A stretch of 64,000 nt of DNA from an uncultured Candidatus Saccharibacteria bacterium. Lineage in GTDB: Bacteria > Patescibacteriota > Minisyncoccia > Phycocordibacterales > SBAW01. The notes under the pieces were generated by a model that was not told where the DNA came from, ran no database searches, and saw only the letters and a list, made by a program, of their open reading frames with translations. Of this stretch, positions 6,289 to 57,370 are shown in pieces. A program made the translations under genes and the position numbers. The stretch is taken from positions 104,687-168,686 of the forward strand of contig CAZTNI010000002.1 of the NCBI GenBank assembly GCA_964615415.1, written 5' to 3'. The first letter of the stretch is position 1. Each line of letters begins with the position of its first letter.

Positions 6289-6299
6289 GTTGTAGATGG

Positions 6300-13603: not shown

Positions 13604-13647
13604 AAATAAACCCGCGGCTTTTCAGCCGCGGGTAAGGGGAGCATGTG

Positions 13648-14217: not shown

Positions 14218-14527
14218 CGAAGAACTCTCCCAGTTTTGGTGCCGCGGGTGCGGACACTACCATGTACTATGGTGTCACGGCGCGTCTTTTGGGGCAATTA
14301 GTTTTAGTACTACAAGCGACAGGGGAACTTCTTGTCAAACCACCCTTGTAGGTTAGGACGAAGCATCTTGACACTTGTAAATGAAGTATTCAATTACATC
14401 TATCACGTAATATTCAGTGCTCCTGTGCGTTACTACTACCTAAGTAGCGAGGGTGTGTATGACTCGCATGCATATCGCTGCTTCCTTATTACTATATGAT
14501 TATTAGTAATCTAATTAGCACATTGAT

Positions 14528-29388: not shown

Positions 29389-29430
29389 ATACACCCAGTA
29401 TACCCCACGCACGCGTGCTACAATTTTTGC

Positions 29431-30495
29431 ATGCGCAAGGTTTTGCACAAGCTGCGACAGTACTTTTTTCCGTCGCATCATAATGCGTACCGGCCTCATA
29501 TTCTAAAAAAACAGTGGCTCCTCTTTTTTCTTACGATGGTACTTACTGCGGAAGCAGTCTTTGTAGGAGGCGCGCTACTAAAACAAACGGGGATACAGTT
29601 TCTTGCTGCGGTACTGCCGGGAGAGATTATTGCGTTCACTAATACCGAACGCTCAGGAGTGGCCGTGGGTACGGTAGTTGAATCTTCGCTGCTTTCAAAA
29701 GCTGCGCAAGCTAAAGCGGAAGACATGGCAGCAAAAGGATATTTTTCGCATGTTGGGCCGGATGGCAAAGAGCCGTGGGTATGGATAGAAGAAGCAGGAT
29801 ACAGCTACACGTATGCAGGAGAAAACCTGGCAGTCCGATTTTTAGACTCTCATCAAGTAGTTGATGCGTGGATGGCGTCCCCAAGCCACCGCGCAAACAT
29901 TGTAAAAGGGCAGTACACCGAAATCGGCGTAGGTGTTGCAGAAGGTATGTATGAAGGCCAACCTGCAACGTATGTGGTGCAGTACTTTGGCACGCCGCGT
30001 GTTGCAGCAGTTGCACAAGCCGCTGAACCAGTCTCCACTCCTGCGTCGGTTGTTGATGAAGAAGAGACCGTTTCTGCACCAGTAATTCCAGAACCTGAAG
30101 TGCAAGGTGTCGCAACGCCAGTTGTTACAGAAATTGTGCCAGACGTCGAGCTGCCGGCTGCCGTTGAGTCGCAAGGAGGAGTGGAAGCATATCTGCGCGC
30201 TGTCTTTGAAGGAATTATGCGTGCAGATACATCCGCGCTATGGCTTATCGGCGGCATAGCGGCGCTGCTGGTGGTCGCACTTCTGCTAGCATTCTTTATA
30301 CATCTCCAAGTGCAACCGACCGATATGTTAATGAGCGGAGCAACTGTTGCAGCAATTGCGATAACACTGCTTGCGATTAATGCGTACTATGTGCGACCTG
30401 GGGGAGTTGATACGCCGCTCGGTGCTTCTGTTGCGACGGCGCTCCCAGAAGGCGTGGTGGGCGACAGTGCTGCATTTGCGGAGGCATCCTTTTAA
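29431..30495 (+). CDS. CAP/SCP (YkwD-like) domain protein with C-terminal TM
   Basis: GYFSHVGPDGKEPWVWIEEAGYSYTYAGENLA...WMASPSHRANI are CAP-domain motifs; start at MRKVLHK; alternative starts possible. Confidence 0.5.
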   Translation: MRKVLHKLRQYFFPSHHNAYRPHILKKQWLLFFLTMVLTAEAVFVGGALLKQTGIQFLAAVLPGEIIAFTNTERSGVAVGTVVESSLLSKAAQAKAEDMAAKGYFSHVGPDGKEPWVWIEEAGYSYTYAGENLAVRFLDSHQVVDAWMASPSHRANIVKGQYTEIGVGVAEGMYEGQPATYVVQYFGTPRVAAVAQAAEPVSTPASVVDEEETVSAPVIPEPEVQGVATPVVTEIVPDVELPAAVESQGGVEAYLRAVFEGIMRADTSALWLIGGIAALLVVALLLAFFIHLQVQPTDMLMSGATVAAIAITLLAINAYYVRPGGVDTPLGASVATALPEGVVGDSAAFAEASF

Positions 30496-34401: not shown

Positions 34402-34738
34402 GAATACTTGACATTTATTGTAAGTGGGTGTATTATAGTAAATGGAGGCTCTTCTATAGAGGTTTATTCTTACCTTGTCGGTGGAAAGCGGTGCTGTGGG
34501 GGCTTGCTCCTTATGCCCGTTTGATCCAATACCGTCAACGGCGAAGAAATACTCGTGAACAAGGTGTGAGGCCCAGCCTCTATCCTATTTCACCCTCTAG
34601 GGTTTGTCGGGTCCATAAAGTTTTGCCCGCTCTATCCAAACCCTGTTCCTCCCGTCAAAGATTCGGGAGTCGTCGTTAACTAACTAACATGAATAGGCCC
34701 GCTGTCTCTCTATTGGGATGGCGGGCCACTTATTTTTT
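34402..34738 (+). ncRNA. candidate structured non-coding RNA or long leader (unidentified)
   Basis: 337-nt coding-free gap between uvrB and uvrA; several hairpins (e.g. CTCCCG-N9-CGGGAG); ends with intrinsic terminator GGCCCGC...GCGGGCC + T7 at 34697-34738; only an R-rich low-complexity ORF. Confidence 0.3.
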
Positions 34739-34753
34739 ACAGATGAGCTACTT

Positions 34754-34789
34754 GTGTATCCTGTGTATAAGTCAGTGGATTTGTGTACA
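34754..34789. promoter_or_regulatory. three direct TGTGTA(T/C) repeats upstream of uvrA
   Basis: TGTGTAT at 34754 and 34763 and TGTGTAC at 34783, about 90-120 bp upstream of the uvrA ATG. Confidence 0.3.
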
Positions 34790-34874
34790 AGTAGGGTACT
34801 ATTAGTGTGTGACTAAGCGTGGTATACTGCTCTATACCCACCCCTCGGAGCATCCGTGGGGCCATTAACGTTAT

Positions 34875-37457
34875 ATGGCTGAAGAATTTATACATATCAA
34901 AGGCGCCAAGACGCACAATCTTAAGAATATCGACCTTAAGATTCCGCGTAACAAGATGGTGATTTTTACAGGACTCTCCGGTAGCGGAAAGTCATCTTTG
35001 GCGTTCGACACTATTTTTGCAGAAGGGCAGCGCCGTTACGTTGAGTCGCTTTCCGCATACGCGCGACAATTCTTGCGCCAGATGCAAAAACCGGATGTAG
35101 AGGAAATTACAGGTCTTTCCCCAGCAATTTCTATCGACCAAAAGTCTCGCTCTAACAATCCGCGCTCAACCGTTGCAACAATTACTGAAATTTACGACTA
35201 CCTGCGTATTCTCTTTGCTCGCGTAGGGCACCCGCACTGTCCTGTGTGTGGTCGCGAGATCAAAAAACACTCAAACGAGGAAATTGTGCAGAGTGTTGTT
35301 GAAAGTGTTACTAAAAATGCTCCACAAAAGTCCCGCAACGTGATGGGTGTGGAAATTGCAGACGATGTCGTGCGTATTTACGCGCCGGTCGTTGTTGGTC
35401 GCAAGGGTGAATACTATCAACTGCTCTACGATCTGCTTGGTAAAGGCTTTGAGCGTGCAAAGATCGATGGCGAATTGAAGAGTTTGCGCGAGCAAGTCAT
35501 CCTTTCGAAGTATAAAAAGCACGACATAGACGCGCTTGTTGATGAAATTGTCATTACTGACTTTACTCGGCAGAAACAAGCAGCGCTCGAGCGCTTAAGT
35601 GAGGCGGTTGAGCGTGCGCTCGCAGAGTCTGAAGGCTTGGTGCGTATTGAAAGTGCGGGAGAGTCGCGCCTTATTTCTGCAAAGTTTATGTGTGCGTACG
35701 ACGGATTCTCTTTCCCGGAAGTAGAGCCGCGCCTGTTCTCATTTAACTCGCCGTACGGCGCGTGTCCTGCATGTAATGGCTTGGGTACGAAGCATTTTAT
35801 GGGCGAGGAGCCCTGCCCCGTCTGTAAGGGTGCGCGTTTGCGCCCAGAGTCACTTAATGTGTTTATTGGCGACAAGAAAAACATTGTCGATACTTCAACG
35901 TTTTCTATACAAAATGCATACGACTTCTTCGACTCGCTTGAATTAACTAAAAAAGAGCAAGAAATTTCTAAGACCATCATTAAGGAAATCATGGCGCGCC
36001 TGAAGTTTATGCTCGATGTGGGCTTGGACTACCTCACCCTCGACCGTCGTGCGAATACACTCTCCGGCGGCGAGGCGCAGCGCATTCGTCTTGCATCGCA
36101 ATTGGGGAGCGGCTTGGTGGGTGCACTCTACGTGCTCGACGAGCCGACCATCGGCCTCCATCAGCGTGACAACGAGCGCCTTATTAAAACATTGGTTAAC
36201 TTGCGCGACTTGGGCAACACTATTTTGGTTGTCGAGCACGACGAAGACACTATTTACGCAGGCGACTATCTTGTCGACATCGGCCCGGGTGCCGGCGTGC
36301 ATGGCGGCAACGTGGTCGTTGCGGACTACTTAGACAAGCTCCTTACTGCAAAGAAAAATGATAGCGGCTCGCTCACTTTGGCGTACTTGCGTGGCGAGAA
36401 GCAAATCGAGGTGCCGGAGAAACGTCGCGATGGCGAAAAAGGGCATATCAAAATTAAGGGTGGTAAGGCATTTAACATCGACAATCTTTCTGCAGAGATC
36501 CCGCTCGGCCGCTTGGTAACCATTACCGGCGTCTCTGGTTCAGGGAAGTCGACCTTCCTTTATGAAATTGTGCACCAAAACTTGCGCGCACGCTTCGATA
36601 AAAAATATCGCACGAACAAGGTCTACAACGCTGCATCATTTGATGTGACCGCACTCATTTCTCGTACGATTCTTATCGACCAGTCGCCTATCGGCCGCAC
36701 ACCACGCTCTAACCCGGCAACATATACCGGCGCCTTCCAACACATTCGCGACATGTTTGCAGAAACGACCGAGGCTCGTGCGCGCGGGTGGAAGTCATCC
36801 CGCTTTTCATTCAATGTGCCGCAGGCTCGTGGTGGCGGTCGCTGCGAAGCGTGCGAGGGTAACGGTATGATCGCAGTTGAAATGTCCTTCCTCCCGACTG
36901 TCTATGTGCTTTGCGACATTTGTAACGGCAAGCGCTTTACCAAGGAGACCTTGGAAGTGAAGTATAAAAAGAAGAGCATTTACGACGTGCTTGAAATGAC
37001 GGTTGAAGAGGGGCTCGAATTCTTTAAAGATATACCGGCAATTTACGATCGCTTAAAAACTTTGCAGGAAGTAGGGTTGGAATACTTGAAGTTAGGTCAG
37101 TCTGCGACGACACTCTCGGGCGGTGAGGCACAGCGCGTTAAAATTTCTGCCGAGCTCTACAAACCCCATCTCCAGAAAACGATTTATCTTCTTGATGAGC
37201 CTACGGTAGGTCTCCACTACGAAGACGTTTCTAAACTCATCGATATTCTGAACCGTCTTGTTGCGGCAGGGAACTCGGTTATTTTGATCGAGCACAATAT
37301 GGACGTTATAAAATGCTCGGACTACCTCCTCGACTTCGGTCCGGAAGGGGGTGTGGGTGGCGGCAAACTGATAGCAAAAGGCACACCAGAGGAAGTTGCA
37401 AACAATAAAAACTCTCACACGGGTAAGTACTTAAAACGCGTGCTCAAGGGCAAATAA
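34875..37457 (+). CDS. uvrA: excinuclease ABC subunit A
   Basis: Two ABC ATPase modules ([22 protein letters not shown]), zinc-finger cysteines; 860 aa. Confidence 0.95.
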
Positions 37458-37482
37458 CACGAGTATGCTATAATGTCAAAAT

Positions 37483-38766
37483 ATGACGTTGGAGCACTAT
37501 AACGACATAAAGAAGACCATTCCGGATAACCCGGGGGTGTACTTCTTCATGGGGCCTCGCAAGGAGGTGCTCTATATAGGCAAGGCAACATCTTTGCGTG
37601 ATAGAACGCGCTCGTACTTTGCTGCGGACTTGTTGACTACTCGGGGGCCGCTTCTTGTAGAAATGCTCAGCAATGCTGTTGCTATTGAGTGGAAGGAAAC
37701 AGACTCTGTGCTTGAGGCACTTATTTTAGAGGCAAACCTCATTCGTTCACACTTACCGCGCTACAACACTGACCTGAAAGACGACAAAAGTTTTAATTAT
37801 CTTGTTATCACCAAGGAAGACTACCCGCGTGTGCTTATTGTGCGCGGAAAAAACTTAGAAGATGAATTTCCGTCGCGCAATCGCCTTTATACGTTTGGTC
37901 CGTTCCCACACGGGTTACAGTTGCGCGAGGCAATGAAGCTGGTGCGTAAAATTTTCCCCTTCCGCGATACGTGTACACCCGCAGAAGAGCTTATTGCAGC
38001 GGGGAAGAAGCCGAAGTCGTGTTTTAACCATCATATAGGCCTCTGTCCCGGTGTGTGCACCGGAGAAATCTCTAAAGAAGAATATCGTCGGATTATCCGC
38101 CACATAGCACTCCTCTTCCAAGGGAAGAAAAAAGAGCTCGTAAAAACACTCGAGAAAGAGATGAAGCGTGCGGCAGAGTGGGAAGACTTTGAAGAGGCGG
38201 CACGCTTACGCTCGCAGCTCTTTGCGCTTAACCATATTCAGGACGTGTCGCTTATTAAAGAAGAGTATCGCAAGCCACGCTTGGTGGTGGGGACGATGCG
38301 TATAGAGGCGTACGACATGGCGCATCTTCAGGGTTCCGCAAACGTTGGTGTGATGACTGTGGTGGAAGATGGTGTGGCACAAACAAATGAGTATCGTAAA
38401 TTTAGAATCCGCTCCGCAAAGCCGGGAGACGACATTGGTGCGCTGCGCGAAGTGCTGACACGCCGACTGACACACGAGGAGTGGCCGATGCCGCGTATGA
38501 TCGTCGTTGACGGTTCGACTGCACAGATGAACGCTGCGGGGGCAGTGCTTGAGGAGTACGAGATGCAGATTCCGATTGTTGGCGTCGTGAAAGACCAGAA
38601 GCATCGCCCGCGTGATATTAAAGGTGACCGCAATTTAATTGCAGGACGCGAGCGCGACATACTCCTTGCCAACGCCGAGGCGCACCGCTATGCAATCGGT
38701 TACCATCGCAAAACAAGCAGAGCACGCTTGAAAGATGTTCCAGAAGGGGAACGCACGATTAGATAA
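37483..38766 (+). CDS. uvrC: excinuclease ABC subunit C (short form, no C-terminal HhH)
   Basis: N-terminal GIY-YIG (GVYFFMGPRKEVLYIGKATSLRDR), UvrB-interaction region, RNaseH-like endonuclease domain; only 427 aa. Confidence 0.8.
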   Translation: MTLEHYNDIKKTIPDNPGVYFFMGPRKEVLYIGKATSLRDRTRSYFAADLLTTRGPLLVEMLSNAVAIEWKETDSVLEALILEANLIRSHLPRYNTDLKDDKSFNYLVITKEDYPRVLIVRGKNLEDEFPSRNRLYTFGPFPHGLQLREAMKLVRKIFPFRDTCTPAEELIAAGKKPKSCFNHHIGLCPGVCTGEISKEEYRRIIRHIALLFQGKKKELVKTLEKEMKRAAEWEDFEEAARLRSQLFALNHIQDVSLIKEEYRKPRLVVGTMRIEAYDMAHLQGSANVGVMTVVEDGVAQTNEYRKFRIRSAKPGDDIGALREVLTRRLTHEEWPMPRMIVVDGSTAQMNAAGAVLEEYEMQIPIVGVVKDQKHRPRDIKGDRNLIAGRERDILLANAEAHRYAIGYHRKTSRARLKDVPEGERTIR

Positions 38767-44079: not shown

Positions 44080-44589
44080 ATGGGCGCTTTTAGTATCTTC
44101 TTTCAAGATCGAATGGCGGCTGGAGTGCGCGTGTGCGGCACCTGTAGCGCGTGCTGTAAAACCCACGGCGTGACACTTGCGCCCGATACATACAAACCAA
44201 AAGGAGTCTGGTGCCCACACTGGGACAAGCAGGAGCGTTGCACTATATATAAGACGCGCCCGAGGGATTGTCAGGATTTTCGGTGCGAGTGGCTGAAGGG
44301 ATACGGATCCGACTCGCTGCGTCCCGATAGAACAAAAGTAGTGCTCGACTTTGTAAACCTTCCTGATGGCCCCCAGGGAGGAATGCTCCAGATGTTTGAA
44401 GTGTCGGAGGGGGCACTCCTAAAGTCGGACATGCAAGCACTTACGCAGGAAGTTTGTACGCGTGGCGTGACCGTGGTCCACGTGCCGCTCGGTAGGCAGA
44501 AAAAGATCTTCATTCCTCGTCGGGTGAAAGATTTTACAGAAGTTGTAGAAAGTGCAACGGAAGAAGGGTATATAATCGTGCTCGTTTAA
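44080..44589 (+). CDS. YkgJ-family Fe-S/zinc-chelating domain protein (CxxCxxCC)
   Basis: CGTCSACC motif and further Cys pairs; terminator at 44594-44623. Confidence 0.55.
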   Translation: MGAFSIFFQDRMAAGVRVCGTCSACCKTHGVTLAPDTYKPKGVWCPHWDKQERCTIYKTRPRDCQDFRCEWLKGYGSDSLRPDRTKVVLDFVNLPDGPQGGMLQMFEVSEGALLKSDMQALTQEVCTRGVTVVHVPLGRQKKIFIPRRVKDFTEVVESATEEGYIIVLV

Positions 44590-44673: not shown

Positions 44674-44747
44674 GTCGGGCTGTCGTATAGTGGTAGTATG
44701 TAGGCCGTCGGAAATTTAGTCGGGCTGTCGTATAGTGGTATTATGTA
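44674..44747 (+). repeat. tandem direct repeat of the tRNA-Pro 5' half (29 nt, 1 mismatch, 45-bp spacing)
   Basis: GTCGGGCTGTCGTATAGTGGTA(G/T)TATGTA occurs at 44674-44702 and again as the 5' part of the tRNA at 44719-44747. Confidence 0.7.
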
Positions 44748-44791
44748 CGCTTCGGGTGCGTAAGATCCGAGTTCGATTCTCGGCAGCCCGA
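44721..44791 (+). tRNA. tRNA-Pro (CGG)
   Basis: Acceptor CGGGCTG/CAGCCCG, anticodon stem TACGC/GCGTA with loop TTCGGGT, T-arm CCGAG-TTCGATT-CTCGG; weak D-stem; no encoded CCA. Confidence 0.6.
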
Positions 44792-44812
44792 CTAAGTTTC
44801 TGACAATTCATA

Positions 44813-45430
44813 ATGAAAAAGACTGACCTACAGAGCATTACCGATTTTATTTACGAGATAGGCATCTTGCGCCACACGCCACGTTCGGGCTTTTGGTTTT
44901 TGGGTACGGGCAAGCAGTCTGTTGCGGAACATTTGTTTCGCACCGCGATGATAGCCTACGCGCTGTGTAAGATGACTCCGGGTGCAAACAAAGAGCGTGC
45001 GATTTTTATGGCACTGGTACACGACGTAGGCGAAGGGCGTACCTCGGACCTTAACTATGTGCACCAGCGCTACGGCCGCTTGGCAGAAACAACCGCGTTT
45101 GAAGACATTGCCCGCGCAGTACCCTTCGGTAAAGAAATGCAGGACGCATACTTAGAAGAGCAAAAGCGCGAAAGTCTTGAAGCAAAGCTGGTTAAAGACG
45201 CAGACCAGTTGGAATGGATAGCGTCACTCCGCGAAGAGGAAATGAAAGGGAATGCAAAAGCGAAGGAGTGGGTCGCTATTGCAGCAAAGCGTCTTAAAAC
45301 TCCTGCTGCGCAAACTATCTGCAAACTTTTGTTGAAGACAAAGCCAGATGCGTGGTGGTTCGACAAAGCCGACAAGTGGTTTGTCGACCGGCAAGAAGCC
45401 CACAGGAAAATTTCTAAAAAGAAGAAATAG
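44813..45430 (+). CDS. HD-domain phosphohydrolase (YfbR-like 5'-deoxynucleotidase)
   Basis: H...HDVGEGRTSD...DADQLE HD motifs. Confidence 0.65.
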   Translation: MKKTDLQSITDFIYEIGILRHTPRSGFWFLGTGKQSVAEHLFRTAMIAYALCKMTPGANKERAIFMALVHDVGEGRTSDLNYVHQRYGRLAETTAFEDIARAVPFGKEMQDAYLEEQKRESLEAKLVKDADQLEWIASLREEEMKGNAKAKEWVAIAAKRLKTPAAQTICKLLLKTKPDAWWFDKADKWFVDRQEAHRKISKKKK

Positions 45431-45494: not shown

Positions 45495-46280
45495 GTGCTT
45501 GACCAGCCGACACTAACACTTGATCATCCTGCCGTGCAGGCAGCGAAGGATCAGTGGGAGAGGAGACTCGCTAAACGTCCCGCTCCTCGAAAACATTCTT
45601 TTACGTTCGAGACCTTTTTCGAGCGTTTTAGTGACACCACTCTACCTCTTTCGCATTTACAGAAAGAGACAGGTCTGACACGAGCCCGGTTGTATCAAAT
45701 CTATGACAGATATTTCCGTACTCTATTTGGAGGGGTGTCCGCACGGAAACGCTTCCAAAAGATACTGTCTCGCAAGCGCGCTGCAGAGCTTGAAACAGCA
45801 GAGCAAACATTGCTCAAAAAACATCCTCGCTGGCGGCATGTTGTAAAGCAAGCACAACTCGCTTCCTGTGTCGTGGAAGCGGTGCCTATGGGGAATCATG
45901 GAAAAGAAACAGGGAGGGTGCTTGCCACTTCCTTGCGCATTAATGGACACCTTTGCTCTGCTCACATTGCACGCACTGCCCGCAGGTTGGCAGACACCAA
46001 GCGGAGTTATGTGCGTGTGCAGCTGAGTACTTTGGTGGTTCAAAGAAAATATGCAGTCGTTATTCATACGAGAGTGAAGGATCAAAAGCCACACACGTTC
46101 GTAATCCCGACTGCAGACATCCTCGCTGCCTATCCTGCGCTCCGCGAAGGTAAAGATGTGATGTTGAACATACCAGTAGAACGGTCGTCGGCATCTCATA
46201 AAAACATGTCGAAGCTTGCGTATTGGAACTACGAAAATGCGTGGCACTTGCTACGCCCCGAAGAAACATCCGCCCCGTAA
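45495..46280 (+). CDS. hypothetical protein with HTH-like segment
   Basis: LSHLQKETGLTRARLYQIYDRYF is HTH-like; 261 aa; terminator at 46268-46300. Confidence 0.4.
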   Translation: MLDQPTLTLDHPAVQAAKDQWERRLAKRPAPRKHSFTFETFFERFSDTTLPLSHLQKETGLTRARLYQIYDRYFRTLFGGVSARKRFQKILSRKRAAELETAEQTLLKKHPRWRHVVKQAQLASCVVEAVPMGNHGKETGRVLATSLRINGHLCSAHIARTARRLADTKRSYVRVQLSTLVVQRKYAVVIHTRVKDQKPHTFVIPTADILAAYPALREGKDVMLNIPVERSSASHKNMSKLAYWNYENAWHLLRPEETSAP

Positions 46281-46305
46281 ATAGGGGCGGATTCTTTTTT
46301 GCAAG

Positions 46306-46339
46306 CATATTGACCATCGAGGTTTTTAATGTTAAAAAT
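46306..46339 (+). promoter_or_regulatory. sigma70-like promoter CATATTGACC-N16-(TG)TTAAAAAT
   Basis: -35 TTGACC and extended -10 TGTTAAAAAT; shares the upstream ACATATTGAC block with promoters at 47540 and 51294. Confidence 0.45.
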
Positions 46340-46408
46340 CTGCCTGGAAGTCCGGCGGTAGTTGCCGCCACACAACCTCTGTTCAATCAACCACGAAAGG
46401 GTTCTCTC

Positions 46409-47482
46409 ATGTGGATTCTCGCGCTTATTGCGCTCGGTTTCTTTGCCTACATGGCGTATGACTTTCTGAGAGTAAACAGTCTTGATACTGCAGTGGCAGA
46501 TGCATTTTTTGCAGCCTCTTCTGAGACACAAGCAGTGCTTGGTATAACTCTCTGCCTGGTTATTGGGTTTATTATCCTGCAAGGAACGACATACCGAGCT
46601 GCCAAAAAAGATCGTGAAATAGCGCAGAAGGAGGCAGGTAGTCTTGCGGACGACTTGCTCGAACTTCGTGCCAAGCGAACGGAGCCTTATGACGATCCTA
46701 TCGCAGAGCTTGCCAGAATGATGGGTCGTCCTATACCAACTTCTCGTGTCTTCGATCAAGGCGAAGAGTCGGAAGATGTGCTCAAGACACTCGGTACGAG
46801 TATCGAAGAGTTGGAGACACAGTTGGGTACGGTGCGTCGCGAGTTCGGCGACGATGATCGGGTGCAGGAACTCTCCGAGCGTCTTGGACGCCTGCGGACT
46901 TTGCATAGCGAAGCGATGCGGCGATTCGAGTCGATCGAGAGCCTCCAAGAAGAGACGGATCGTCTTCAGCAGCGTCTTACGTCAGCTTTTGAAAAGGTCG
47001 ACATCGACGACCTTGAAGCGAAAGTCGACGAGATTGCCGACTTTGTTCGCGAAAAGCGCGATGTTGTAGAACGAGCAGCTACGCTCGCGCAGTCGCTTCC
47101 GGCGCATACTACTCGTCTGAAGAATTTGGACGAGCAGTCTCGCAAGATGATCGATGGAGAGTCGGGCATCATGGCGCAGGTTCGCGCTGCGGAGCGGACC
47201 ACTGCCGTGGTGAAGGGCCGCATCGAACAGCTGGCGGGTCGGCAAGGGGATCAGCAGCGAGGTGTCGCCGCTATTCCACCGATTGGCCAGCGGATCAGCA
47301 CCCTCGCTCAAGAGGTTGCGACTATCGAACGCGACATGGACAAACTGGATACTGATACCGGGATCCAGCGAGTCAATAGCCTCGGTACTCGCCTAGAAGC
47401 GCTGCGTGTGCAGCTGACCGGTCACAATTCGCCGCCGGTCCAGAGGCAGCAGCTCGCGGTTGTCCCCGCCGCTGCAGAGTGA
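46409..47482 (+). CDS. membrane-anchored long coiled-coil protein
   Basis: Start at MWILALIALGFFAY (2 TM helices) then ~300 aa of heptad-rich coiled coil; GC-rich. Confidence 0.5.
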   Translation: MWILALIALGFFAYMAYDFLRVNSLDTAVADAFFAASSETQAVLGITLCLVIGFIILQGTTYRAAKKDREIAQKEAGSLADDLLELRAKRTEPYDDPIAELARMMGRPIPTSRVFDQGEESEDVLKTLGTSIEELETQLGTVRREFGDDDRVQELSERLGRLRTLHSEAMRRFESIESLQEETDRLQQRLTSAFEKVDIDDLEAKVDEIADFVREKRDVVERAATLAQSLPAHTTRLKNLDEQSRKMIDGESGIMAQVRAAERTTAVVKGRIEQLAGRQGDQQRGVAAIPPIGQRISTLAQEVATIERDMDKLDTDTGIQRVNSLGTRLEALRVQLTGHNSPPVQRQQLAVVPAAAE

Positions 47483-47503
47483 GTTCTTTTTGTGCAGTAA
47501 TCA

Positions 47504-47536
47504 AGCGCGGCCAGTAGGCCGCGCTTTTTCTTTTTG
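47504..47536 (+). terminator. intrinsic terminator after the coiled-coil gene
   Basis: AAGCGCGGCC-AGTA-GGCCGCGCTT + TTTCTTTTT. Confidence 0.75.
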
Positions 47537-47539
47537 ATA

Positions 47540-47574
47540 CATATTTGACGATACGCACTTTTAGTGTTAAAAAT
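47540..47574 (+). promoter_or_regulatory. sigma70-like promoter CATATTTGACG-N16-(TG)TTAAAAAT
   Basis: Near-identical architecture to the 46306 promoter; 45 bp upstream of the E2-like gene. Confidence 0.45.
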
Positions 47575-47618
47575 TTGTCAGACGGACATCGTCAATATGT
47601 CAACAAAGGAGTCTTCTG

Positions 47619-49016
47619 ATGAAAGAAGAAATTCTTTATTTTCTGCCGAAGACGCTCGAAAGCGCTTTTGCGTGTCTTGATGCCGAAGGGCTTACAGCTG
47701 TGGAGCGAATAGTCGAGATCGAAGGATTCAAATTCCCCGGTCTCGTCATCTCTGGGCCAGAGGAAAAGCTTGAGCATTTTGCTCGGACGGCACGCGTACC
47801 CGAAGGTGGGCCGCGTGCGAGATTGCTTACTAATTTGGAAAAGATCTACGGCTCGCGCCTTGTGTTCGATGAAAAAATCGAACTCTGTGGCGAAACTGTT
47901 GTGGACGACAAAATGTGTCACGTGCTCGGGCTCGAGGGTGTTGTTGCAAACCTGCCGGAATATGGGTGGGGCTTAGATAAACATACCGAGCTTCTGGACG
48001 AGATCAATAGTACGCTCGCCGATATTTCTGCTTGGGCGGGGAAACCTGTTCTTCTTGCGGCGCCTTCGGAAGTCGTGGTGGGTCTCCCGCTTATTCCAGA
48101 GACGCAGATCTGCGTCATTCTCGATAGTTCTCCGGCGGGACACTACTCTGAAATGAGGAGTAAAAAACTGTGCGGCGTTTCCTTCAGCGAAATCGATGAA
48201 GGTATACGCCACTCAGGACCGACCGCAGGGAGAGGGTATGTAGTGCGCGACGAAGATGGTACTGCAGTTGCACAAATTATCCGGAACTGTTTCTACCTCT
48301 TCTTGCCATATGATGTGCTCCATAAGCGCATGGTACTGACTCAGGGTGGAAACGGCCTCGGCCTCTTTCGTAAGACGCTCATGCGAGCATGGAATGCGCA
48401 GTTTGAAGCGCGTGATCCTCAGATAGAAGTGTTCGAAAGTGCTGAGGCATACGTTGCCTTTGGACGAGAGACGGTTCAGGAAGCGCCGAGGATCCTTCGT
48501 GCACTTGTGGACGCACACGACAAAAAAATCGCTGAGGCAGAAGAAAAACTGCGGAATGCGATATCTGAAAAACGTCGTATGCTCCGCCTGATCGAGCACT
48601 TAGAGCGCGAGGCGAGTGAACTGACGCCTGAAAAGTTGAAACAGAGTTGGAACAAGCTTACTCAGTTGCCACAGGTGCGCTCTATAGCTTCGGTAGATAA
48701 CGCACTCCAGGTCGAGACTAACCTGCTTGTGAATACGCAGTACGGTCGTCGGCCGCTCGGGCGCTACATCCTACGTCTTGCAGAGCAGCAGATCTTTGTG
48801 TGGTGTATCGAGTCGTGCCATCCGGCCGGCTTGTCGCATCCGCACATTGGCGTTAAACATGGTAACCCGTGTTTCGGCAACGTTTCTATCGCGATTCAAA
48901 AAGCAGCAAGCGAGTCTCGAGCGTATGCTATCGAGTTAGCTATCCGCTGGCTCGAAAGTGGATACGACCACGACCTCGCAGATATAAAGATCACTGAGTG
49001 GCCGGAGGCAGCGTAA
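47619..49016 (+). CDS. multidomain protein with C-terminal E2 (UBC-like) ubiquitin-conjugating-like domain
   Basis: C-terminal IFVWCIESCHPAGLSHPHIGVKHGNPCFGNVSIAIQ parallels the UBC HPN-x(5-8)-G-x-(I/P)C(L/F) catalytic motif; AAAGGAG RBS; stop overlaps the E1 start (TAAATG). Confidence 0.5.
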   Translation: MKEEILYFLPKTLESAFACLDAEGLTAVERIVEIEGFKFPGLVISGPEEKLEHFARTARVPEGGPRARLLTNLEKIYGSRLVFDEKIELCGETVVDDKMCHVLGLEGVVANLPEYGWGLDKHTELLDEINSTLADISAWAGKPVLLAAPSEVVVGLPLIPETQICVILDSSPAGHYSEMRSKKLCGVSFSEIDEGIRHSGPTAGRGYVVRDEDGTAVAQIIRNCFYLFLPYDVLHKRMVLTQGGNGLGLFRKTLMRAWNAQFEARDPQIEVFESAEAYVAFGRETVQEAPRILRALVDAHDKKIAEAEEKLRNAISEKRRMLRLIEHLEREASELTPEKLKQSWNKLTQLPQVRSIASVDNALQVETNLLVNTQYGRRPLGRYILRLAEQQIFVWCIESCHPAGLSHPHIGVKHGNPCFGNVSIAIQKAASESRAYAIELAIRWLESGYDHDLADIKITEWPEAA

Positions 49017-49658
49017 ATGGTAGAACGTAACTACTCGCACCAAGACGATTTCTTTAACCCTGCGAACGCTCGGTCGGTAACGCTAATCGGCTGCGGATCG
49101 GTCGGGAGTATGGTAGCGTACACTCTGGACAAGATGGGTGTGCCCACGCTTGAGATATGGGACGGCGACAAAGTGGATTCCCACAACTGCCCCATGTCGT
49201 TCTATGACGAACCTGACATCGGCCGCTTCAAGGTCGATGTGCTGGCAGAGCGGCTTCGTAACGCGCAGGTGGTCCCTCATCGGGCCATGTATGCCGGCGA
49301 AGCGCTTACGAGTAGTGTCGTTATCGCTTGTGTCGACACCATGGTTGCGCGCAAACTCATATGGGAGCGCGTAAAAATGGTGCCGAGCGTCGCTTTGTTT
49401 TGCGACACGCGTACGGCAGAGCTCTATGTCGAAGTCCTTACTGTCTCGCCCTGCGAGCATGAAGACATCGGCAACTACGAGCAGCTGCTCTACGGCGACG
49501 AAAAGGCGGTGCGTCAGTCGTGTGGCCGGCATGGGCTCATGACCGTTTCCATGCGGGCAGCGCAAGTGGTTGCTTCCAACCTTGCTGCGTTTTGGCAAGA
49601 TGGGAGAAAGACGTGGCGCGTTGGTGAGCGGACAGACATCCACCACCGCGCGTTCTGA
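49017..49658 (+). CDS. minimal E1-like ThiF/MoeB-family adenylyltransferase
   Basis: VTLIGCGSVGSMVAYTLDKMGVPTLEIWDGDKVDSHN (GxGxxG Rossmann plus acidic loop) and VIACVDTMVARK match the E1 adenylation fold; 213 aa; translationally coupled to the E2-like gene. Confidence 0.65.
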   Translation: MVERNYSHQDDFFNPANARSVTLIGCGSVGSMVAYTLDKMGVPTLEIWDGDKVDSHNCPMSFYDEPDIGRFKVDVLAERLRNAQVVPHRAMYAGEALTSSVVIACVDTMVARKLIWERVKMVPSVALFCDTRTAELYVEVLTVSPCEHEDIGNYEQLLYGDEKAVRQSCGRHGLMTVSMRAAQVVASNLAAFWQDGRKTWRVGERTDIHHRAF

Positions 49659-49688
49659 AGTACAACTCACAACCAGAGAGGAACAAGC

Positions 49689-49937
49689 ATGTTCGGAAAA
49701 GACAAAAAGGGAACGATCAACATCAAGCTGATCGTCGTCACTGCGGCGGGTACACCGGTTGGCGACCGCGAGGTGCCGGTCGAGGAAAGCGCGACCATCG
49801 CGCAGATCCTCGAAACCCAGGGGATCAGCACTGAGGGGATGGAAATTTCCGTCAACGGCAAGCCGACCAGCAACCTCAGTCAGAAGGTGCGAAGCGGCAT
49901 GCAGATCTCGGTCACCGAGCGCCCCAAGGGCTCGTAG
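49689..49937 (+). CDS. ThiS/MoaD-like beta-grasp (ubiquitin-like) small protein, C-terminus -RPKGS
   Basis: 82 aa; ...ISVNGKPTSNLSQKVRSGMQISVTERPKGS resembles the MoaD/ThiS C-terminal strand; immediately downstream of the E1; terminator at 49955-49988. Confidence 0.45.
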   Translation: MFGKDKKGTINIKLIVVTAAGTPVGDREVPVEESATIAQILETQGISTEGMEISVNGKPTSNLSQKVRSGMQISVTERPKGS

Positions 49938-49954
49938 TTCTTTTGTGCGACAGC

Positions 49955-49988
49955 AAGTGCGACCTACGGGTCGCACTTTTTCTTTTGT
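49955..49988 (+). terminator. intrinsic terminator after the Ubl-like gene
   Basis: AAGTGCGACC-TACG-GGTCGCACTT + TTTCTTTTG. Confidence 0.75.
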
Positions 49989-52761: not shown

Positions 52762-53058
52762 ATGATCTACGGGGCAGTACTTGCACTCCATATTGTTGCT
52801 GCGTGTGTAACTTTTGCAGTTATTGCGGGTGTAGGCATTGCGCTTTTGAAGCAAATGCATCGTTTCTATAAACCACTGGGTCTTTCGCTCGCTCTCGTTG
52901 CGCTTGTACAAATTGCAAGCGGCGTCATGATGATCGTACTTAATCCGGAACTCTCTGTACTAAAAGTTGGTCTGCACTTACTTGTGTACCTTGGCGTGTG
53001 TGTGATGGTTGAGGGTGCGCTCTACCTTAAGGCGCGCTCAGTTGCATGGACTTCTTAA
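52762..53058 (+). CDS. small membrane protein upstream of cyoA
   Basis: ~99 aa, 3 TM helices; start MIYGAVLALH follows the terminator; overlaps the cyoA start. Confidence 0.4.
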   Translation: MIYGAVLALHIVAACVTFAVIAGVGIALLKQMHRFYKPLGLSLALVALVQIASGVMMIVLNPELSVLKVGLHLLVYLGVCVMVEGALYLKARSVAWTS

Positions 53059-53861
53059 ATTTTTTTGACGTCTTAAACCCTGCGGGAACTATCGCCCTTG
53101 CGGAGCGCGGACTTATGATCCACGCAGCACTGTTCATGACTATAGTCACCATTGCGGTCTTTGGTCTGACTTTTTTCTTTGCGTGGTATTACCGCGCAGG
53201 GAACACGAAGGCGAAATATACTCCCGACTGGCAGCACTCGCGGATGGAGGAACTTGTCTGGTGGGCGATCCCACTCGAAATTATTCTTGTACTTGGAGCA
53301 TTAACGTGGACGAGTACACACAACCTCGACCCGCGTAAACCACTTTCAGCAGAACCGCCGCTTGTGGTGCAAGTGGTGGCGCTGGATTGGAAGTGGCTGT
53401 TTGTGTATCCGGAAGAACATATTGCGACGGTTAATTATGTGCGCATCCCGGTTAATAAACCGGTGCGATTTGAAATTACTGCCGACGCGCCGATGAACTC
53501 GTTTTGGATCCCGCGCTTGGGCGGACAAATTTACGCGATGACGGGCATGGTGAATCATTTGAACTTAGATGCAACCGAAGAGGGAACGTTTAAGGGATTG
53601 TCTGCGAACTATAGCGGTGAAGGGTTTGCAGATATGAAATTTACAGTCGAAGCGACCTCGCAGGAGGAGTTTGATGCATGGGTAGCACAGACAAAAATGC
53701 AGCACGCAGTACTAACAACCGACTCCTACGCTGCGCTTGCGGCACCGAGTGTGGTCGAAGAGCCTGTGTATTACGGAATAGTCGAATATAATTTATTCGA
53801 CCAGATCGTAGGAAAATTCATGGGGCACGCACATGAAGTGAATGAACACGCACATCAGTAA
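53046..53861 (+). CDS. cyoA: quinol oxidase subunit II (CyoA/QoxA-like, no CuA ligands)
   Basis: 2 TM helices plus cupredoxin-like domain NSFWIPRLGGQIYAMTGMVNHLNL without the CuA Cys/His set. Confidence 0.8.
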   Translation: MDFLNFFDVLNPAGTIALAERGLMIHAALFMTIVTIAVFGLTFFFAWYYRAGNTKAKYTPDWQHSRMEELVWWAIPLEIILVLGALTWTSTHNLDPRKPLSAEPPLVVQVVALDWKWLFVYPEEHIATVNYVRIPVNKPVRFEITADAPMNSFWIPRLGGQIYAMTGMVNHLNLDATEEGTFKGLSANYSGEGFADMKFTVEATSQEEFDAWVAQTKMQHAVLTTDSYAALAAPSVVEEPVYYGIVEYNLFDQIVGKFMGHAHEVNEHAHQ

Positions 53862-53864
53862 TAT

Positions 53865-55673
53865 ATGTTTGGAAACCTTACCTTAGACGCTTTCATACAT
53901 GGTCCGATAGAAACCGGCGCGCAGCTCATGGTTGTACTTGGCGGTGTGGCTATCGCCCTTTTGCTCACCGTCTTTAAACGGTGGGGATGGTTCTATAAAG
54001 AGTGGCTCACGACCGTCGACCATAAAAAGATCGGCATCATGTACATCATCCTCGCGGTGATCATGCTCTTCCGTGGTGCGATGGATGCGTTTATGATGCG
54101 TGCACAACAAGCGATAGCGGTGGGTGACAGCGTGGGCTACCTCGACCCAAACCACTTTTCGCAAATCTTTACGGCGCATGGGATCATTATGATCTTTTTT
54201 GTCGCTATGCCCTTGATGTTCGGGCTCATCAACTACATGGTCCCGCTCCAAATTGGTGCGAAGGATGTCGCGTTCCCGTTCCTGAACTCTGTCTCGTTTT
54301 GGCTTACTGCTGCAGGGGCGATGCTACTTAATGCGTCGTTAGTGATAGGTGAATTCGCGGCAACGGGGTGGCTCGCATATCCGCCGCTCTCCGGTATTGA
54401 GTACAGTCCTGGTGTTGGAGTCGACTACTACATTTGGGCGCTCCAGATAGCAGGTGTCGGTACACTCCTTTCGGCAATCAACTTTATTGCGACGATTCTG
54501 AAGATGCGGAAGGCAGACATGAAGTTGATGCAGATGCCTATCTTCCCGTGGACCGTGTTCGGCTCGATGCTGCTCGTCTTGTTTGCATTCCCGATCCTTA
54601 CCGCAACGCTCGCACTCTTGTCTTTGGACCGTATCTTCGGCATGCACTTCTTTACCACCGACCTTGGCGGGAATGCCATGATGTACATCAACCTGATTTG
54701 GGCATGGGGTCACCCGGAGGTGTACATTCTTATCCTCCCCGCGTTCGGTATCTTTTCAGAAATTGTGCCAACGTTCGCGCAGAAAAAACTCTTCGGCTAC
54801 ACCTCTATGGTTGTTGCAACGATGATGATCGTCTTTTTGTCGTTCATTGTGTGGGTGCACCACTTCTTTACGATGGGTGCTGGCGCAAATGTGAACGCAT
54901 TCTTCGGCATCATGACCATGGCTATTGCTGTACCAACCGGCGTAAAAGTATTTAACTGGCTCTTTACGATGTTCCGTGGTCGCATCATCTACAAAACCCC
55001 GATGCTGTGGTTTATGGGATTCCTCGTCACCTTTGTAATCGGCGGCATGACGGGTGTCTTGATGTCGATCCCTGCGGCGGACTTCCAGCTCCACAACAGT
55101 TTGTTCCTTGTGGCGCACTTCCACAACATGATCATCGGCGGCGTATTGTTTGGCATGTTTGCGGGGCTCTCGTATTGGTTCCCAAAAATATTTGGATTCA
55201 TGTTGAACGAGCGCTTGGGCAAGTGGGCATTTTGGTCATGGATCATCGGTTTTTTGGTCGCGTTTTTGCCAATTTATGCTGCAGGGTTGATGGGTATGAC
55301 GCGCCGCTTAAGCCAAGTGGAGCCGCAGTTCCAGCCACTCCTTATTGTTGCTGCAATTGGTGCGTGTATCATTGCGCTCGGTATTTTCTTCCAAGTGCTG
55401 CAAATTGTGGTCAGTATTGTGCAGCGCAAACAGCATCCTGCAGGAAATAATCCATGGAACGGAACGAATTTGGAGTGGACACTGCCGTCGCCGCCGCACT
55501 ACGAGCCGTACGACCCGAAGCACAACACGCTGCTTGGTGTGATGATAGCGGGGCTTAGCTTCTTTCTGGGGTTTGGGATCATCTGGCACATATGGTGGCT
55601 CGCAGCCGTCGCAGCTGTGGCGATAGTTGGCGGACTTATCCTGCGTACATTTAGATATGAAGGAGCACACTAA
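53865..55673 (+). CDS. cyoB: heme-copper quinol oxidase subunit I
   Basis: [23 protein letters not shown] and His-ligand pattern; 602 aa. Confidence 0.95.
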
Positions 55674-56217
55674 CACAGCAACATTCGGATTTTGGATCTA
55701 CCTCATGAGCGATGTGGTGCTTTTTGCATCGCTCTTTGCAACGTTTGCGGTGCTGCAAGGCGCAACGTTCGGTGGACCGACTCCAAAAGAATTATTTGAC
55801 CTACAGTTTGTGTTGTTTGAAACGCTGATCCTTCTTACCTCAAGTTTTACTGTGGGATTAAGTCTTTTGTCTGCACATGCAGGGAAGCGACAAGCAACGC
55901 TTATCTTCCTCGGCATGACCCTGCTTTTAGGCTTAGGATTTTTGGCGATGGAACTGACCGAGTTTCGTCATCTTATTGCGGAAGGGCATGGTCCCGGAAC
56001 GAATGCATATCTCTCCTCATTCTTTACGCTCGTCGGGACGCACGGACTCCATGTCTTTTTTGGCGCACTATGGATGATAGTGACGATGGTCTTTATTGCG
56101 CTGCGCGGCCTTGACCGTGCGCTCACAAAACTTGCGTGCCTCTCGCTGTTTTGGCACTTCCTTGATGTGATCTGGATATTTATTTTTACGCTGGTGTATC
56201 TTATTCCGATGCTATAA
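55657..56217 (+). CDS. cyoC: quinol oxidase subunit III
   Basis: [24 protein letters not shown] is a conserved subunit III N-terminus; start within the overlap with cyoB is uncertain. Confidence 0.75.
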
Positions 56218-56222
56218 ATCGT

Positions 56223-56552
56223 ATGCTTACTTCATCGCGCACATATGTTATAGGGTTCGCACTCTCTACACTGCTGACGCTTGCTGCGTTTGGCTTGGTC
56301 TTTCAATACATAGCAGGAAGTTTGCCCATAGCGCGCGAGTGGCTCATTGTTGCGCTTCTGGTGTTCGCGGTCGCGCAGTTGATCGTACAGGTAACGTGCT
56401 TCCTCCACTTAGGATCAGAAACAAAACCGCGCTGGCAACTCATCACGTTCCTCTTTTCCCTCCTTGTTGTAGTAATTTTAGTAGGAGGCAGCATTTGGAT
56501 CATGACCCATCTCACGCACAACATGATGCAAGACACCTCGCACGTGTGGTAG
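56223..56552 (+). CDS. cyoD: quinol oxidase subunit IV
   Basis: 109 aa, 3 TM helices, position in operon. Confidence 0.7.
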   Translation: MLTSSRTYVIGFALSTLLTLAAFGLVFQYIAGSLPIAREWLIVALLVFAVAQLIVQVTCFLHLGSETKPRWQLITFLFSLLVVVILVGGSIWIMTHLTHNMMQDTSHVW

Positions 56553-56644
56553 GGTTGGAGCGAAGTGCTTTGCAAAAAAGAGGCTATGACTTGGGCTAGC
56601 GCCCCCGGAGCGCACTCTTTTTTGTAATGCACGAGCTACTACAC

Positions 56645-57370
56645 ATGTCCGCAATCATTAAAAAATATTACTACCTCGCAAAGCCGGGGATCGTGCGCAG
56701 TAACGCGCTCGCTGCTGCGGCAGGTTTTGTATTTGCTTCAAGCGGCGCGATCAATTGGGGAGTGTTTGCCGCAATGTTGTTGGGATTGATAGGAATCATC
56801 GCAAGTGGCTGCGTGTTTAATAATTACTACGACCGCGACATAGACGCGCGCATGGAACGAACGGCAAAACGCGCCCTTGTGCGCGGCACTATTTCCGACG
56901 CACATGCACTTATATATGGAACAGTATTAGGAGTCCTGGGTGGGGCAGTGCTGCTTTTATATACTAATTTCCTGACGTTTGCTGTCGCGCTTGTCGGCTT
57001 TGGTGTGTACGTGCTCCTCTATACGCCGGTTAAACACAAACACCCTGTAGCGCTGTTTATCGGCGCTGTTGCGGGCGCAGTGCCACCGGTCGTGGGTTAT
57101 GTTGCGGTAACCAATACGTTCGACTGGTGGGCAGTGGTTCTCTTTACCTTTTTATATGTGTGGCAGTTGGTGCACTTTATGGCGATAGCGGTCTATCGGT
57201 ATGACGAGTATACGGCTGCTGGCGTGCCTCTCTATATAAAGGAGCGTCCGTCAGATGCCACAAAACAGAAAGCAAAAAAAGTATTTCACGTCTCGCTCGT
57301 TGTACTGCTTTTGTTTTGTGCAGGTCTTGTCGTGTATAGTTTATTGACTTTATTTAAAATTATTATATAA
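56645..57370 (+). CDS. cyoE: protoheme IX farnesyltransferase (heme O synthase)
   Basis: UbiA-family polytopic protein after cyoD; YYDRDIDARMERT motif. Confidence 0.8.
   Translation: MSAIIKKYYYLAKPGIVRSNALAAAAGFVFASSGAINWGVFAAMLLGLIGIIASGCVFNNYYDRDIDARMERTAKRALVRGTISDAHALIYGTVLGVLGGAVLLLYTNFLTFAVALVGFGVYVLLYTPVKHKHPVALFIGAVAGAVPPVVGYVAVTNTFDWWAVVLFTFLYVWQLVHFMAIAVYRYDEYTAAGVPLYIKERPSDATKQKAKKVFHVSLVVLLLFCAGLVVYSLLTLFKIII

Follow-up and report, generated by a model that had tools for sequence, protein, structure and literature searches.

A candidate peptidase-less ubiquitin-like conjugation cassette in an uncultured Saccharibacteria bacterium

Bacterial pathways built from an activating enzyme (E1), a conjugating enzyme (E2) and a ubiquitin-like protein (Ubl), as in Bil, Bub and the type II cyclic-oligonucleotide-based antiphage signalling systems (CBASS), have only recently been proven real, and are central to the question of how ubiquitination originated. 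Here, we describe a locus of three adjacent genes in a 64,000 nt stretch of DNA (the window) from contig CAZTNI010000002.1 of an uncultured Candidatus Saccharibacteria bacterium. The genes encode a large protein with an E2-like C-terminal domain, called X below, a minimal E1 (mini-E1) and a small beta-grasp Ubl. The cassette is a conserved, previously unannotated, peptidase-less E1-E2-Ubl operon type, which would work in the manner of Bil, Bub and CBASS but is not a member of any of them. Our analysis established the folds or families of the three proteins, the conservation of catalytic-type residues, strict linkage of the genes and the existence of fusion variants.

As in Bil, the Ubl, the Cys-type E2 and the E1 are each encoded by a gene of their own, there is no E3, and a conserved His lies near the E2 catalytic Cys. 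In Bil, the E2 has been proposed to recognize its targets itself (PMC10557695; 10.1101/2024.11.21.623953). However, the JAB deubiquitinase BilC is always present in Bil, whereas the cassette has no JAB. The Bil E1 is an IAD-AAD-CYS protein that has a zinc site and whose Cys domain is mobile, in contrast to the 213 aa of the mini-E1 with its one adenylation domain and no CxxC; and the Bil Ubl is trimmed to a terminal Gly, whereas the cassette Ubl has a conserved Gly-Ser end and no accompanying peptidase. X also carries approximately 335 N-terminal residues that are extra relative to the Bil E2, and no sequence model links the cassette to Bil. With Bub, the cassette shares a compact single-domain E1 (that of Citrobacter BubCD is recognizably related, 3.7e-7) and fused forms, the Ubl-E2 fusion BubAB being comparable to the phage-like locus L004 and the E2-E1 fusion BubBD to locus L026. 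Bub nevertheless works by oxyester chemistry, with an E2 Ser, an E1 Tyr and no catalytic Cys (10.1101/2024.11.21.623953), whereas C418 of X and C169 of the mini-E1 are invariant. Bub always encodes the DUF6527 (PF20137) serine protease BubE, of which there is none in the cassette, in its flanks as scanned with Pfam or among conserved neighbours, and Type I Bub encodes a JAB as well (10.1101/2024.11.21.623953), which the cassette does not.

CBASS type II comprises a cyclase, an effector, Cap3 and an E2-E1 fusion, and has no Ubl because the CD-NTase is itself conjugated. Cyclase, effector and Cap3 are absent from the window and from related loci, and PADLOC returned only a partial match of the mini-E1 to the Rossmann core of the Cap2 model (residues 13-89) and nothing for the neighbours. 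In the 6a-6e classes of Iyer et al. (2006), JAB is always fused or adjacent to the E1 (PMC1779556). As the cassette lacks the defining features of 6a-6e, Bil, Bub and CBASS type II, we have filed it under none of them. A preliminary description, made from the sequence of the window without database searches, had not recognized the arrangement as a described subtype, and this judgement held: the trio has no match in PADLOC, NCBIfam or Pfam, and no Bil, Bub or 6a-6e operon type fits it. Within the literature that could be reached, which left out most subscription-journal papers, no paper ties Patescibacteria to such a cassette.

The SAMP2/UbaA pathway resembles the cassette in three respects: the Ubl is most similar to SAMP2, the E1 is a small ThiF-type single-domain protein, and there is no operon-encoded E3. 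Sampylation is not known to involve an E2, the SAMPs end in Gly-Gly, and the JAMM protease HvJAMM1 reverses the modification, whereas the cassette has an obligatorily linked E2-type protein and a Gly-Ser tail. In the UFM1 system, UBA5 is a minimal homodimeric E1 whose adenylation domain houses the catalytic Cys, UFC1 is a non-canonical E2 without an HPN motif, and the UFM1 precursor, which ends in Gly-Ser-Cys, is trimmed by UfSP proteases to expose the Gly. UBA5 is the best match of the mini-E1 in the Protein Data Bank (PDB) (3.2e-13), but the likeness is confined to the Rossmann half of the E1 and does not imply orthology. Lastly, ThiS/MoaD-ThiF/MoeB operons combine a Gly-Gly carrier with linked cofactor or sulfurtransferase genes, in contrast to the Gly-Ser tail of the cassette and its lack of such genes.

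The three proteins and their active-site residues

Direct sequence searches with X gave no match in NCBIfam, PADLOC, PHROGs or PDB sequences beyond coiled-coil noise, which maps to the helix at residues 275-334. With the same exception, none of the curated E2 models (Pfam UQ_con, Prok-E2_A to E and others) matched X at E <= 1, and a Pfam scan of 24 members of the X family gave no match at E <= 0.01. A word-indexed homolog search recovered the query alone and would wrongly have implied that X is an orphan. In an exhaustive HMMER search, 253 representative clusters of the family reached E <= 1e-3, and 168 of them <= 1e-10; most are of 440-520 aa and align across residues ~160-465. Residues H407, P408, H409, C418, G420 and Y449 are invariant in this family (126/126 aligned sequences), and H401, W395, N421, W444, L445, G448, W461 and P462 are more than 90% conserved in the same alignment. 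HPH-x(4-10)-C-x-G is present in 148 of the 150 family members listed, with the form H-P-H-x7(8)-C and a spacing of seven residues commonest; the Cys of X thus stands 7-8 residues after an HPN-type motif, as in E2 enzymes, with the Asn replaced by His. The spacing usual in X is that of UbcH5, HPN-INSNGSI-C. The motif that the preliminary description had compared with the E2 active site, HPHIGVKHGNPCFGN at 48837-48881, was found by translation exactly as quoted.

Comparison of a profile of the X C-terminal domain with UbcH5b using hhalign placed HPH on H75-P76-N77 and C418 on C85, and also paired the preceding strands with the YxGGxF strand. In a search of the PDB with the X profile (hmmsearch), UBE2D2 and UBE2L3 ranked second to sixth in the same register. 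An AlphaFold2 model of X built from the alignment (predicted local distance difference test, pLDDT, 89.1; predicted template modelling score, pTM, 0.73) consists of two N-terminal domains and the 60-residue helix 275-334, followed by a helix, beta-meander, loop and two helices, which is a predicted UBC alpha/beta fold in the C-terminal domain. RWD domains, UEV domains and Cap2 appeared, ranked lower, among the structure-based matches of X, and one Foldseek search of the PDB with the model gave no match. A model of residues 1-272 alone (pLDDT 88.7) had no E2 matches, so the E2 match lies in residues 273-465. The C-terminal domain of X is therefore predicted to belong, at the level of fold, to the E2/UBC superfamily; the UBC-like assignment, which a different fold would have overturned, stands on the AlphaFold2 fold and on the alignment of HPH and the Cys with HPN and C85 of UbcH5b.

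The preliminary description had further noted ~340 aa of unrecognized N-terminal sequence that included a coiled coil. The coiled-coil part of that claim corresponds to the 60-residue helix, but the rest consists of two folded domains. Conserved positions of X outside the E2 domain are Pro and Gly residues together with D211, Q219 and Y226. The middle domain (residues 144-261) possibly serves in target recognition.

The mini-E1 was recognized directly. It matches the Pfam family ThiF (PF00899) with 53.5 bits against a gathering cut-off of 28.1 (E = 2.4e-14), and after UBA5 a profile of nine homologs found ThiF (5e-13), MccB (6e-13) and PaaA (1e-11) in the PDB, with UBA1/6/7, NAE, Cap2, Uba4, the Citrobacter BubCD mentioned above, MoeB and ATG7 lower in the same search. 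Scores against the NCBIfam ThiF/MoeB equivalogs were all far under their cut-offs. Alignment by hhalign with a manually entered sequence of Escherichia coli MoeB gave 95% probability over 154 columns and paired GCGSVG with GLGGLG, K72 with the lysine of GQPKV, D107 and R112 with DCTDNVAVR, and Cys169 with the Cys of LTCVEAGV, which we take to be Cys187. Conserved among the nine homologs are the GxGxxG loop, D49, D51, N57, K72, D107, R112 and C169. This set includes the nucleotide-binding glycines, ribose Asp, phosphate Lys and Mg Asp expected of an E1, with G25, G27, G30, D49, D51, K72 and D107 invariant, and Cys169 occupies the place of the crossover cysteine (ThiF C184, MoeB C187), although its catalytic role is predicted only. 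The Rossmann motif GCGSVG, as given in the preliminary description, is present in the translation, and so is the reported loss of the Arg finger: HNCPMSF replaces NLQRQ, as a trait of the whole family (consensus SHNxPMS). The polypeptide stops soon after the C169 helix, leaving a single adenylation domain. The Pfam gathering score, the profile matches at ~1e-13 and the MoeB alignment identify the product as a MoeB/ThiF-type E1, not a plain dehydrogenase.

The Ubl alone gave only sub-threshold Pfam matches, to Ub-Mut7C, SAMP2 and ThiS. A profile of 21 homologs found Pyrococcus furiosus SAMP2 in the PDB (1rws/5lda, E = 2.1e-5), followed by RnfH, ISG15, polyubiquitin, TtuB and ThiS; Pfam SAMP2 is matched by 13 of these 21 members, among which Ub-Mut7C and ThiF-partner ThiS matches also occur. 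The beta-grasp assignment of the 82 aa protein is thus upheld at profile level. Members of the family are 70-125 aa long. E77, G81 and S82 are invariant in the family alignment, and among the unique tails (n=43) 41 end in GS, one in GG (L028) and one in SS (L033), all at identical length. The Ubl, ending ERPKGS, accordingly lacks the terminal Gly-Gly or Gly expected of a substrate for adenylation. This Gly-Ser terminus was absent from the preliminary description. There is no JAMM motif in any locus of candidate phyla radiation (CPR) type or in the real open reading frames (ORFs) of the window, and no Pfam JAB match among the neighbours of the cassette in the window, which agrees with the earlier statement that no JAB peptidase or deubiquitinase lies beside the three genes. 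Each of the findings that the preliminary description had named as able to overturn it (another fold for X, a Rossmann family other than E1, a third protein that is not a beta-grasp, or an exact match to a named system) was thus looked for, and none overturned the E1/E2/Ubl reading.

Gene linkage, variants and genomic setting

A degenerate DNA pattern for HPH-x7-C[FY]GN-x23-WLxxGY (~50 bits), which recovers ~70% of the X family, identified 29 loci in 185,579 species-representative genomes and a further 33 metagenome loci, and did not find the X motif in 2.9 million viral contigs. By label, the 29 genome loci belong to Patescibacteria (14, among Uhr-, Lloyd- and Kaiserbacteria, Paceibacterota and Saccharibacteria), to metagenome-assembled genomes named 'uncultured Gammaproteobacteria' (7), to Binatia (1) and to unclassified genomes (7). 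The mini-E1 gene directly follows that of X in every locus with room for it, and the Ubl gene is third in 50/50 loci with enough downstream sequence, nine loci being too short to tell. Because the same genes stand in the same order in ~60 independent loci, the trio is non-random. No fourth gene is conserved across these loci, the largest extra family being confined to seven loci of one clade, and no DUF6527, effector or regulator is conserved near the cassette.

Fusion variants support a functional link between the three genes. In L026, E2, linker and E1 are fused in frame. In the phage-like loci L004-L006, a 305 aa protein joins a Ubl ending VKGG, a coiled coil and an E2-like domain (HHPY...C-Y-G), and the genes next in order encode a JAMM peptidase (HSHx7SxxD) and a mini-E1 30% identical to that of the window. 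The family phrog_15670 is of the mini-E1 type (1.5e-9 for the window E1, 9.5e-23 for the L004 E1); the L004 fusion protein itself was not found in the viral contigs, and no relative of the L004 region was found in IMG/VR. The L004 region is possibly a phage-encoded relative of the cassette. The variant means that the module of coiled coil, E2, mini-E1 and Ubl exists in two forms. To judge from the sequences, one form would have a JAB and a Gly-Gly end cut from a fusion, and the other a free-standing Ubl and no JAB.

Several observations concern the surroundings of the related loci. The L004 contig has many small genes on the same strand, and its region at 6300-9080 (also in L005 and L006) includes a 47 aa ORF and a Cys-rich HNH-like 98 aa protein; L004 further encodes a PF03692 domain (12478-12828), as the window does, and a 759 aa protein with intein splicing and LAGLIDADG domains (13370-15649). 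Three loci that are not otherwise alike (L002 340-2099, L010 4977-7432 and L045 ~5803-6417) encode a LexA-like S24 peptidase paired with a Y-family polymerase (IMS) within a few kilobases of the cassette; in small genomes this could arise by chance, or it might point to a connection with DNA damage. In one clade, seven loci carry, downstream of the cassette and on the opposite strand, the gene for a ~400 aa protein with a CYTH-like N-terminal motif (EFERRWIV...; L008 6334-7503, L029, L034 5323-6540, L035, L037, L064 and L067), probably because the genomes are related and share synteny, not because the genes are linked in function.

In the window, the ORF list agrees with the three plus-strand genes of the preliminary description (Table 1), as does the 30 nt spacer between the second and third. 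The first two genes do not overlap, as had been stated, but abut, with TAA-ATG at 49014-49019. Tight junctions and a single set of boundary signals (ribosome-binding site, promoter-like site and hairpins) mark the cassette as a discrete three-gene unit, and the genes are predicted to be co-transcribed as one. The promoter candidate is a consensus match only, and such sites are not commoner than in shuffled sequence.

Table 1. Features of the cassette, in window coordinates
Feature	Position	Strand	Basis or description
Terminator-like hairpin of upstream gene, 5' cassette boundary	47503-47526	+	10-bp stem, 8 GC pairs, then T-run
Sigma-70-like promoter candidate TTGACG-18-AAAAAT	47545-47574	+	9/12 consensus matches
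Ribosome-binding site AAAGGAG	47606-47612	+	Read from sequence, 6 nt before gene 1 ATG
Gene 1, X	47619-49016	+	ORF, 465 aa, multidomain, C-terminal E2 (UBC-fold) domain
X residues 1-140, alpha/beta N-terminal domain, poorly conserved in family	47619-48038	+	
X residues 144-261, conserved beta-rich middle domain	48048-48401	+	
X residues 275-334, single coiled-coil-like 60-residue helix joining N-terminal module to E2	48441-48620	+	AlphaFold2 model
X residues 337-465, E2/UBC-fold domain	48627-49013	+	Helix, four-stranded meander, HPH loop, Cys, two helices, conserved ...KIEEWP end
E2 active-site motif H407-P408-H409 ... C418, then F-G-N	48837-48872	+	Translation
Gene 2, mini-E1	49017-49658	+	ORF, 213 aa, single-domain ThiF-type
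E1 nucleotide-binding loop G25-C-G27-S-V-G30	49089-49106	+	Translation; glycines G25, G27, G30 invariant in E1 family
E1 Cys169, candidate catalytic (thioester) cysteine	49521-49523	+	Invariant in 9/9 homologs
Gene 3, Ubl	49689-49937	+	ORF, 82 aa, SAMP2/ThiS-like beta-grasp
Ubl C-terminal tail E-R-P-K-G-S (family consensus ERPQGS)	49917-49934	+	Translation
Terminator-like hairpin, 3' cassette boundary	49955-49978	+	10-bp stem, then T-run

The cassette had been placed in a GC-richer block downstream of a tRNA-Pro gene. Its GC content is indeed slightly higher than the window mean (0.52-0.57 versus ~0.50), but marginally so, as the region at 18-27 kb reaches 0.61. The tRNA-Pro gene is present at 44721-44792, but at a distance of 2.8 kb and three genes it is no marker of an island border, and the idea of a GC-rich island next to tRNA-Pro was rejected on both counts. 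The flanks of the cassette in the window hold Tgt, UvrB/A/C, Ddl, a glycosyltransferase and a cyo oxidase operon, and no defence-island signature was seen among these flanking genes. An upstream coiled-coil gene, an HD protein and a 261 aa protein were considered as further parts of the cassette and rejected, because they are not conserved beside it elsewhere and a terminator lies between. The coiled-coil gene (46223-47482, plus strand; 419 aa from a TTG start, 357 aa as called in L001) lies just upstream of the cassette with its own terminator and is not beside the cassette in other loci; its product has a hydrophobic N-terminal segment and only weak matches of coiled-coil type (ABC_tran_CTD, SMC/Rad50, DruC/LmuB/JetC). 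An antisense ORF of 297 aa opposite the E1 and Ubl genes (49083-49976, minus strand) is most likely an artefact driven by GC content, since the plus-strand genes are strongly conserved, and its JAMM-like regular-expression match is spurious.

Other plus-strand genes of the window are of interest in their own right. At 44721-45430, the tRNA-Pro(CGG) gene is directly followed by that of an HD-domain protein of the YfbR-like 5'-deoxynucleotidase type (PF13023, 1.5e-21), and at 44080-44589 there is a putative metal-chelating CxxCxxCC protein (PF03692) slightly under the Pfam cut-off. Homologs of uvrB, uvrA and uvrC are consecutive on one strand at 32356-38766, the UvrC-like protein being short (427 aa), and a 461 aa protein with a CAP/SCP (cysteine-rich secretory protein) domain (PF00188, 2.7e-15) is encoded at 29110-30495. 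A cyo-type quinol oxidase operon (53046-57370) comprises a CyoA-like protein with COX2/COX_ARM, a 602 aa CyoB-like protein and further subunits, and would be notable if the genome is that of a Patescibacterium, most of which lack respiratory chains.

Proposed cascade and its alternatives

Our data are consistent with a model in which the three genes constitute a self-contained ubiquitin-like conjugation cascade, an interpretation that we regard as reasonably probable; that the cassette performs E1-to-E2 transfer of the Ubl seems to us about as probable, or a shade less so. In this model, the mini-E1, which probably forms homodimers as MoeB, ThiF and UBA5 do, would bind the Ubl, adenylate its C-terminal carboxylate with ATP and take it over as a thioester on Cys169. 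The Ubl would then move to Cys418 of X, with H407-P408-H409 standing in for the HPN motif of an E2, and X would hand it to a target directly, with no separate E3 involved. The middle (144-261) and N-terminal domains of X could provide built-in substrate recognition, and the 60-residue helix might be a spacer or dimerization element. Since Gly-Ser before the stop codon would already be a mature, activatable terminus, no processing peptidase would be needed, and, as there is no dedicated deconjugating enzyme, the tagging would be permanent unless an enzyme of the host undid it. A host carboxypeptidase could possibly remove the terminal Ser. From the same-length GG and SS variants and the lack of a peptidase, we infer instead that the terminal Ser itself is activated. 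The full proposal, that Gly-Ser is the mature end, that an Arg-less mini-E1 activates a C-terminal Ser and that an HPH-type E2 transfers the Ubl, is a tentative one, which we consider rather unlikely in its entirety.

Several points weigh against the conjugation cascade. For X, the hhalign probability against UbcH5b is only 69%, the E2 matches in the PDB profile search are non-significant (E ~1.5) and rank below an unrelated chain, RBL4 (E 0.24). The UBC fold is common to the non-catalytic RWD and UEV domains, which are also among the matches of X; the structures of X are predictions, and the part that residues 1-272 would play in target recognition is purely what we infer. In the mini-E1, M60 aligns with the Arg of NLxRQ that contacts the ATP phosphate in MoeB and UBA5, the two CxxC pairs of a structural zinc site are lacking, and competence for adenylation is an assumption. 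A C-terminal Ser as the substrate of an E1 is, to our knowledge, without precedent among E1/Ubl pairs. In Type II Bil, moreover, conjugation is blocked for as long as one extra Ala follows the terminal Gly, and BilC has to cut it off first (PMC10557695).

In one alternative, the E1 would act alone, as in archaeal SAMPylation or Urm1-like conjugation, and X would serve as an adaptor or scaffold for the Ubl or its targets, UEV/RWD-like and without catalytic activity. The SAMP2 pathway is not known to use any enzyme of this kind but its E1, UbaA, and the cassette Ubl is nearest to SAMP2. However, UEV and RWD domains are not known to have the active-site cysteine, whereas Cys418 and HPH are invariant (126/126) in the exact register of HPN and Cys in an E2, and the in-frame E2-E1 fusion of L026 mirrors the catalytic Cap2 and BubBD architectures; we therefore find E1-only conjugation improbable. 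Slightly less probable again is a sulfur carrier of the ThiS/MoaD-ThiF/MoeB type, which would supply a thiocarboxylate for a cofactor or thionucleoside with X as a persulfide sulfurtransferase acting through Cys418. The mini-E1 scores equally against ThiF and UBA5, its Cys169 aligns with the MoeB/ThiF cysteine, the Ubl has weak ThiS, TtuB and MoaD matches, and JAB is absent, as in classical thiamine and molybdenum cofactor operons (PMC1779556). Set against these likenesses, neither the cassette nor its conserved neighbours include a rhodanese, cysteine desulfurase, ThiG/ThiH, MoaE or tRNA-thiolase, the UBC fold of X is no known sulfurtransferase fold, and the Ubl-E2 fusion with its JAB points to protein conjugation. 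The Ubl tail is Gly-Ser, whereas all sulfur carriers known to us end in Gly-Gly. A tailoring reaction like those of MccB or PaaA, in which the E1 would adenylate the C-terminal Ser to yield a nucleotidylated or cyclized terminus on a secreted or toxic product without conjugation to proteins, has very little probability in our view. MccB (6e-13) and PaaA (1e-11) do score near the top when the E1 profile is run against the PDB, and the invariant non-Gly end of the Ubl recalls the obligatory C-terminal Asn of MccA. Yet the substrate would be a folded beta-grasp protein of 70-125 aa and not a short peptide, the MccB match is limited to its Rossmann core (chain residues 111-189), and a 213 aa E1 is too small for the extra N-terminal peptide-clamp domain that MccB carries. 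Nor does the cassette include an exporter, immunity or peptidase gene, and tailoring would leave unexplained the invariant E2-type active site in an adjacent, sometimes fused, gene.

The remaining alternative shares the chemistry of the conjugation cascade but differs as to its role: the cassette may be a Bil-type anti-phage defence that tags phage proteins, not an endogenous regulatory modifier. The characterized bacterial E1-E2-(Ubl) operons described in the Bil and Bub papers (PMC10557695; 10.1101/2024.11.21.623953) are all anti-phage. The sporadic distribution of the cassette (29/185,579 species representatives, with the pattern recovering ~70% of the family) and the variation of flanking genes between loci, as for a mobile accessory module, favour such a role, and the mini-E1 type is also found in phages (phrog_15670) and in the phage-like L004. 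PADLOC, on the other hand, picks up nothing but the generic E1 core; regulators of defence such as CapW/BrxR and CapH/CapP are absent nearby, as are effectors and deubiquitinases; the window neighbours are housekeeping genes or of unknown function (Tgt, UvrABC, Ddl, cyo operon); the X motif is missing from the 2.9 million viral contigs; and no integrase or other mobile-element signature was seen beside the cassette. We consider defence a serious possibility, if one that falls short of an even chance. Our guess is that the cassette is an accessory stress or conflict system and not part of core housekeeping.

Significance for Patescibacteria

The oddities of the cassette are its Gly-Ser end, the Arg-less E1, HPH in place of HPN and the 270-residue N-terminal module of X. 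As a conjugation cascade, it would add to the bacterial pathways an operon type with no deubiquitinase, a 213 aa Arg-less single-domain E1 and a Gly-Ser Ubl, in which, unlike the described types, the E2 is joined to its own putative target-recognition module. The annotation gap is considerable: the X family comprises at least 253 clusters at 50% identity, and 0/25 of the members scanned had a Pfam match. The cassette occurs mainly in Patescibacteria, which have genomes of ~1 Mb with very little regulatory machinery and hardly any experimentally characterized post-translational systems. The small size of the cassette makes it attractive for in vitro reconstitution and as a compact protein-tagging tool. 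If its terminal Ser is indeed activated, the cassette would be the smallest complete peptidase-free, E3-free protein-tagging machine known, with three genes and ~760 codons; ultra-reduced Patescibacteria and their phages would be either the place of its evolution or its captors.

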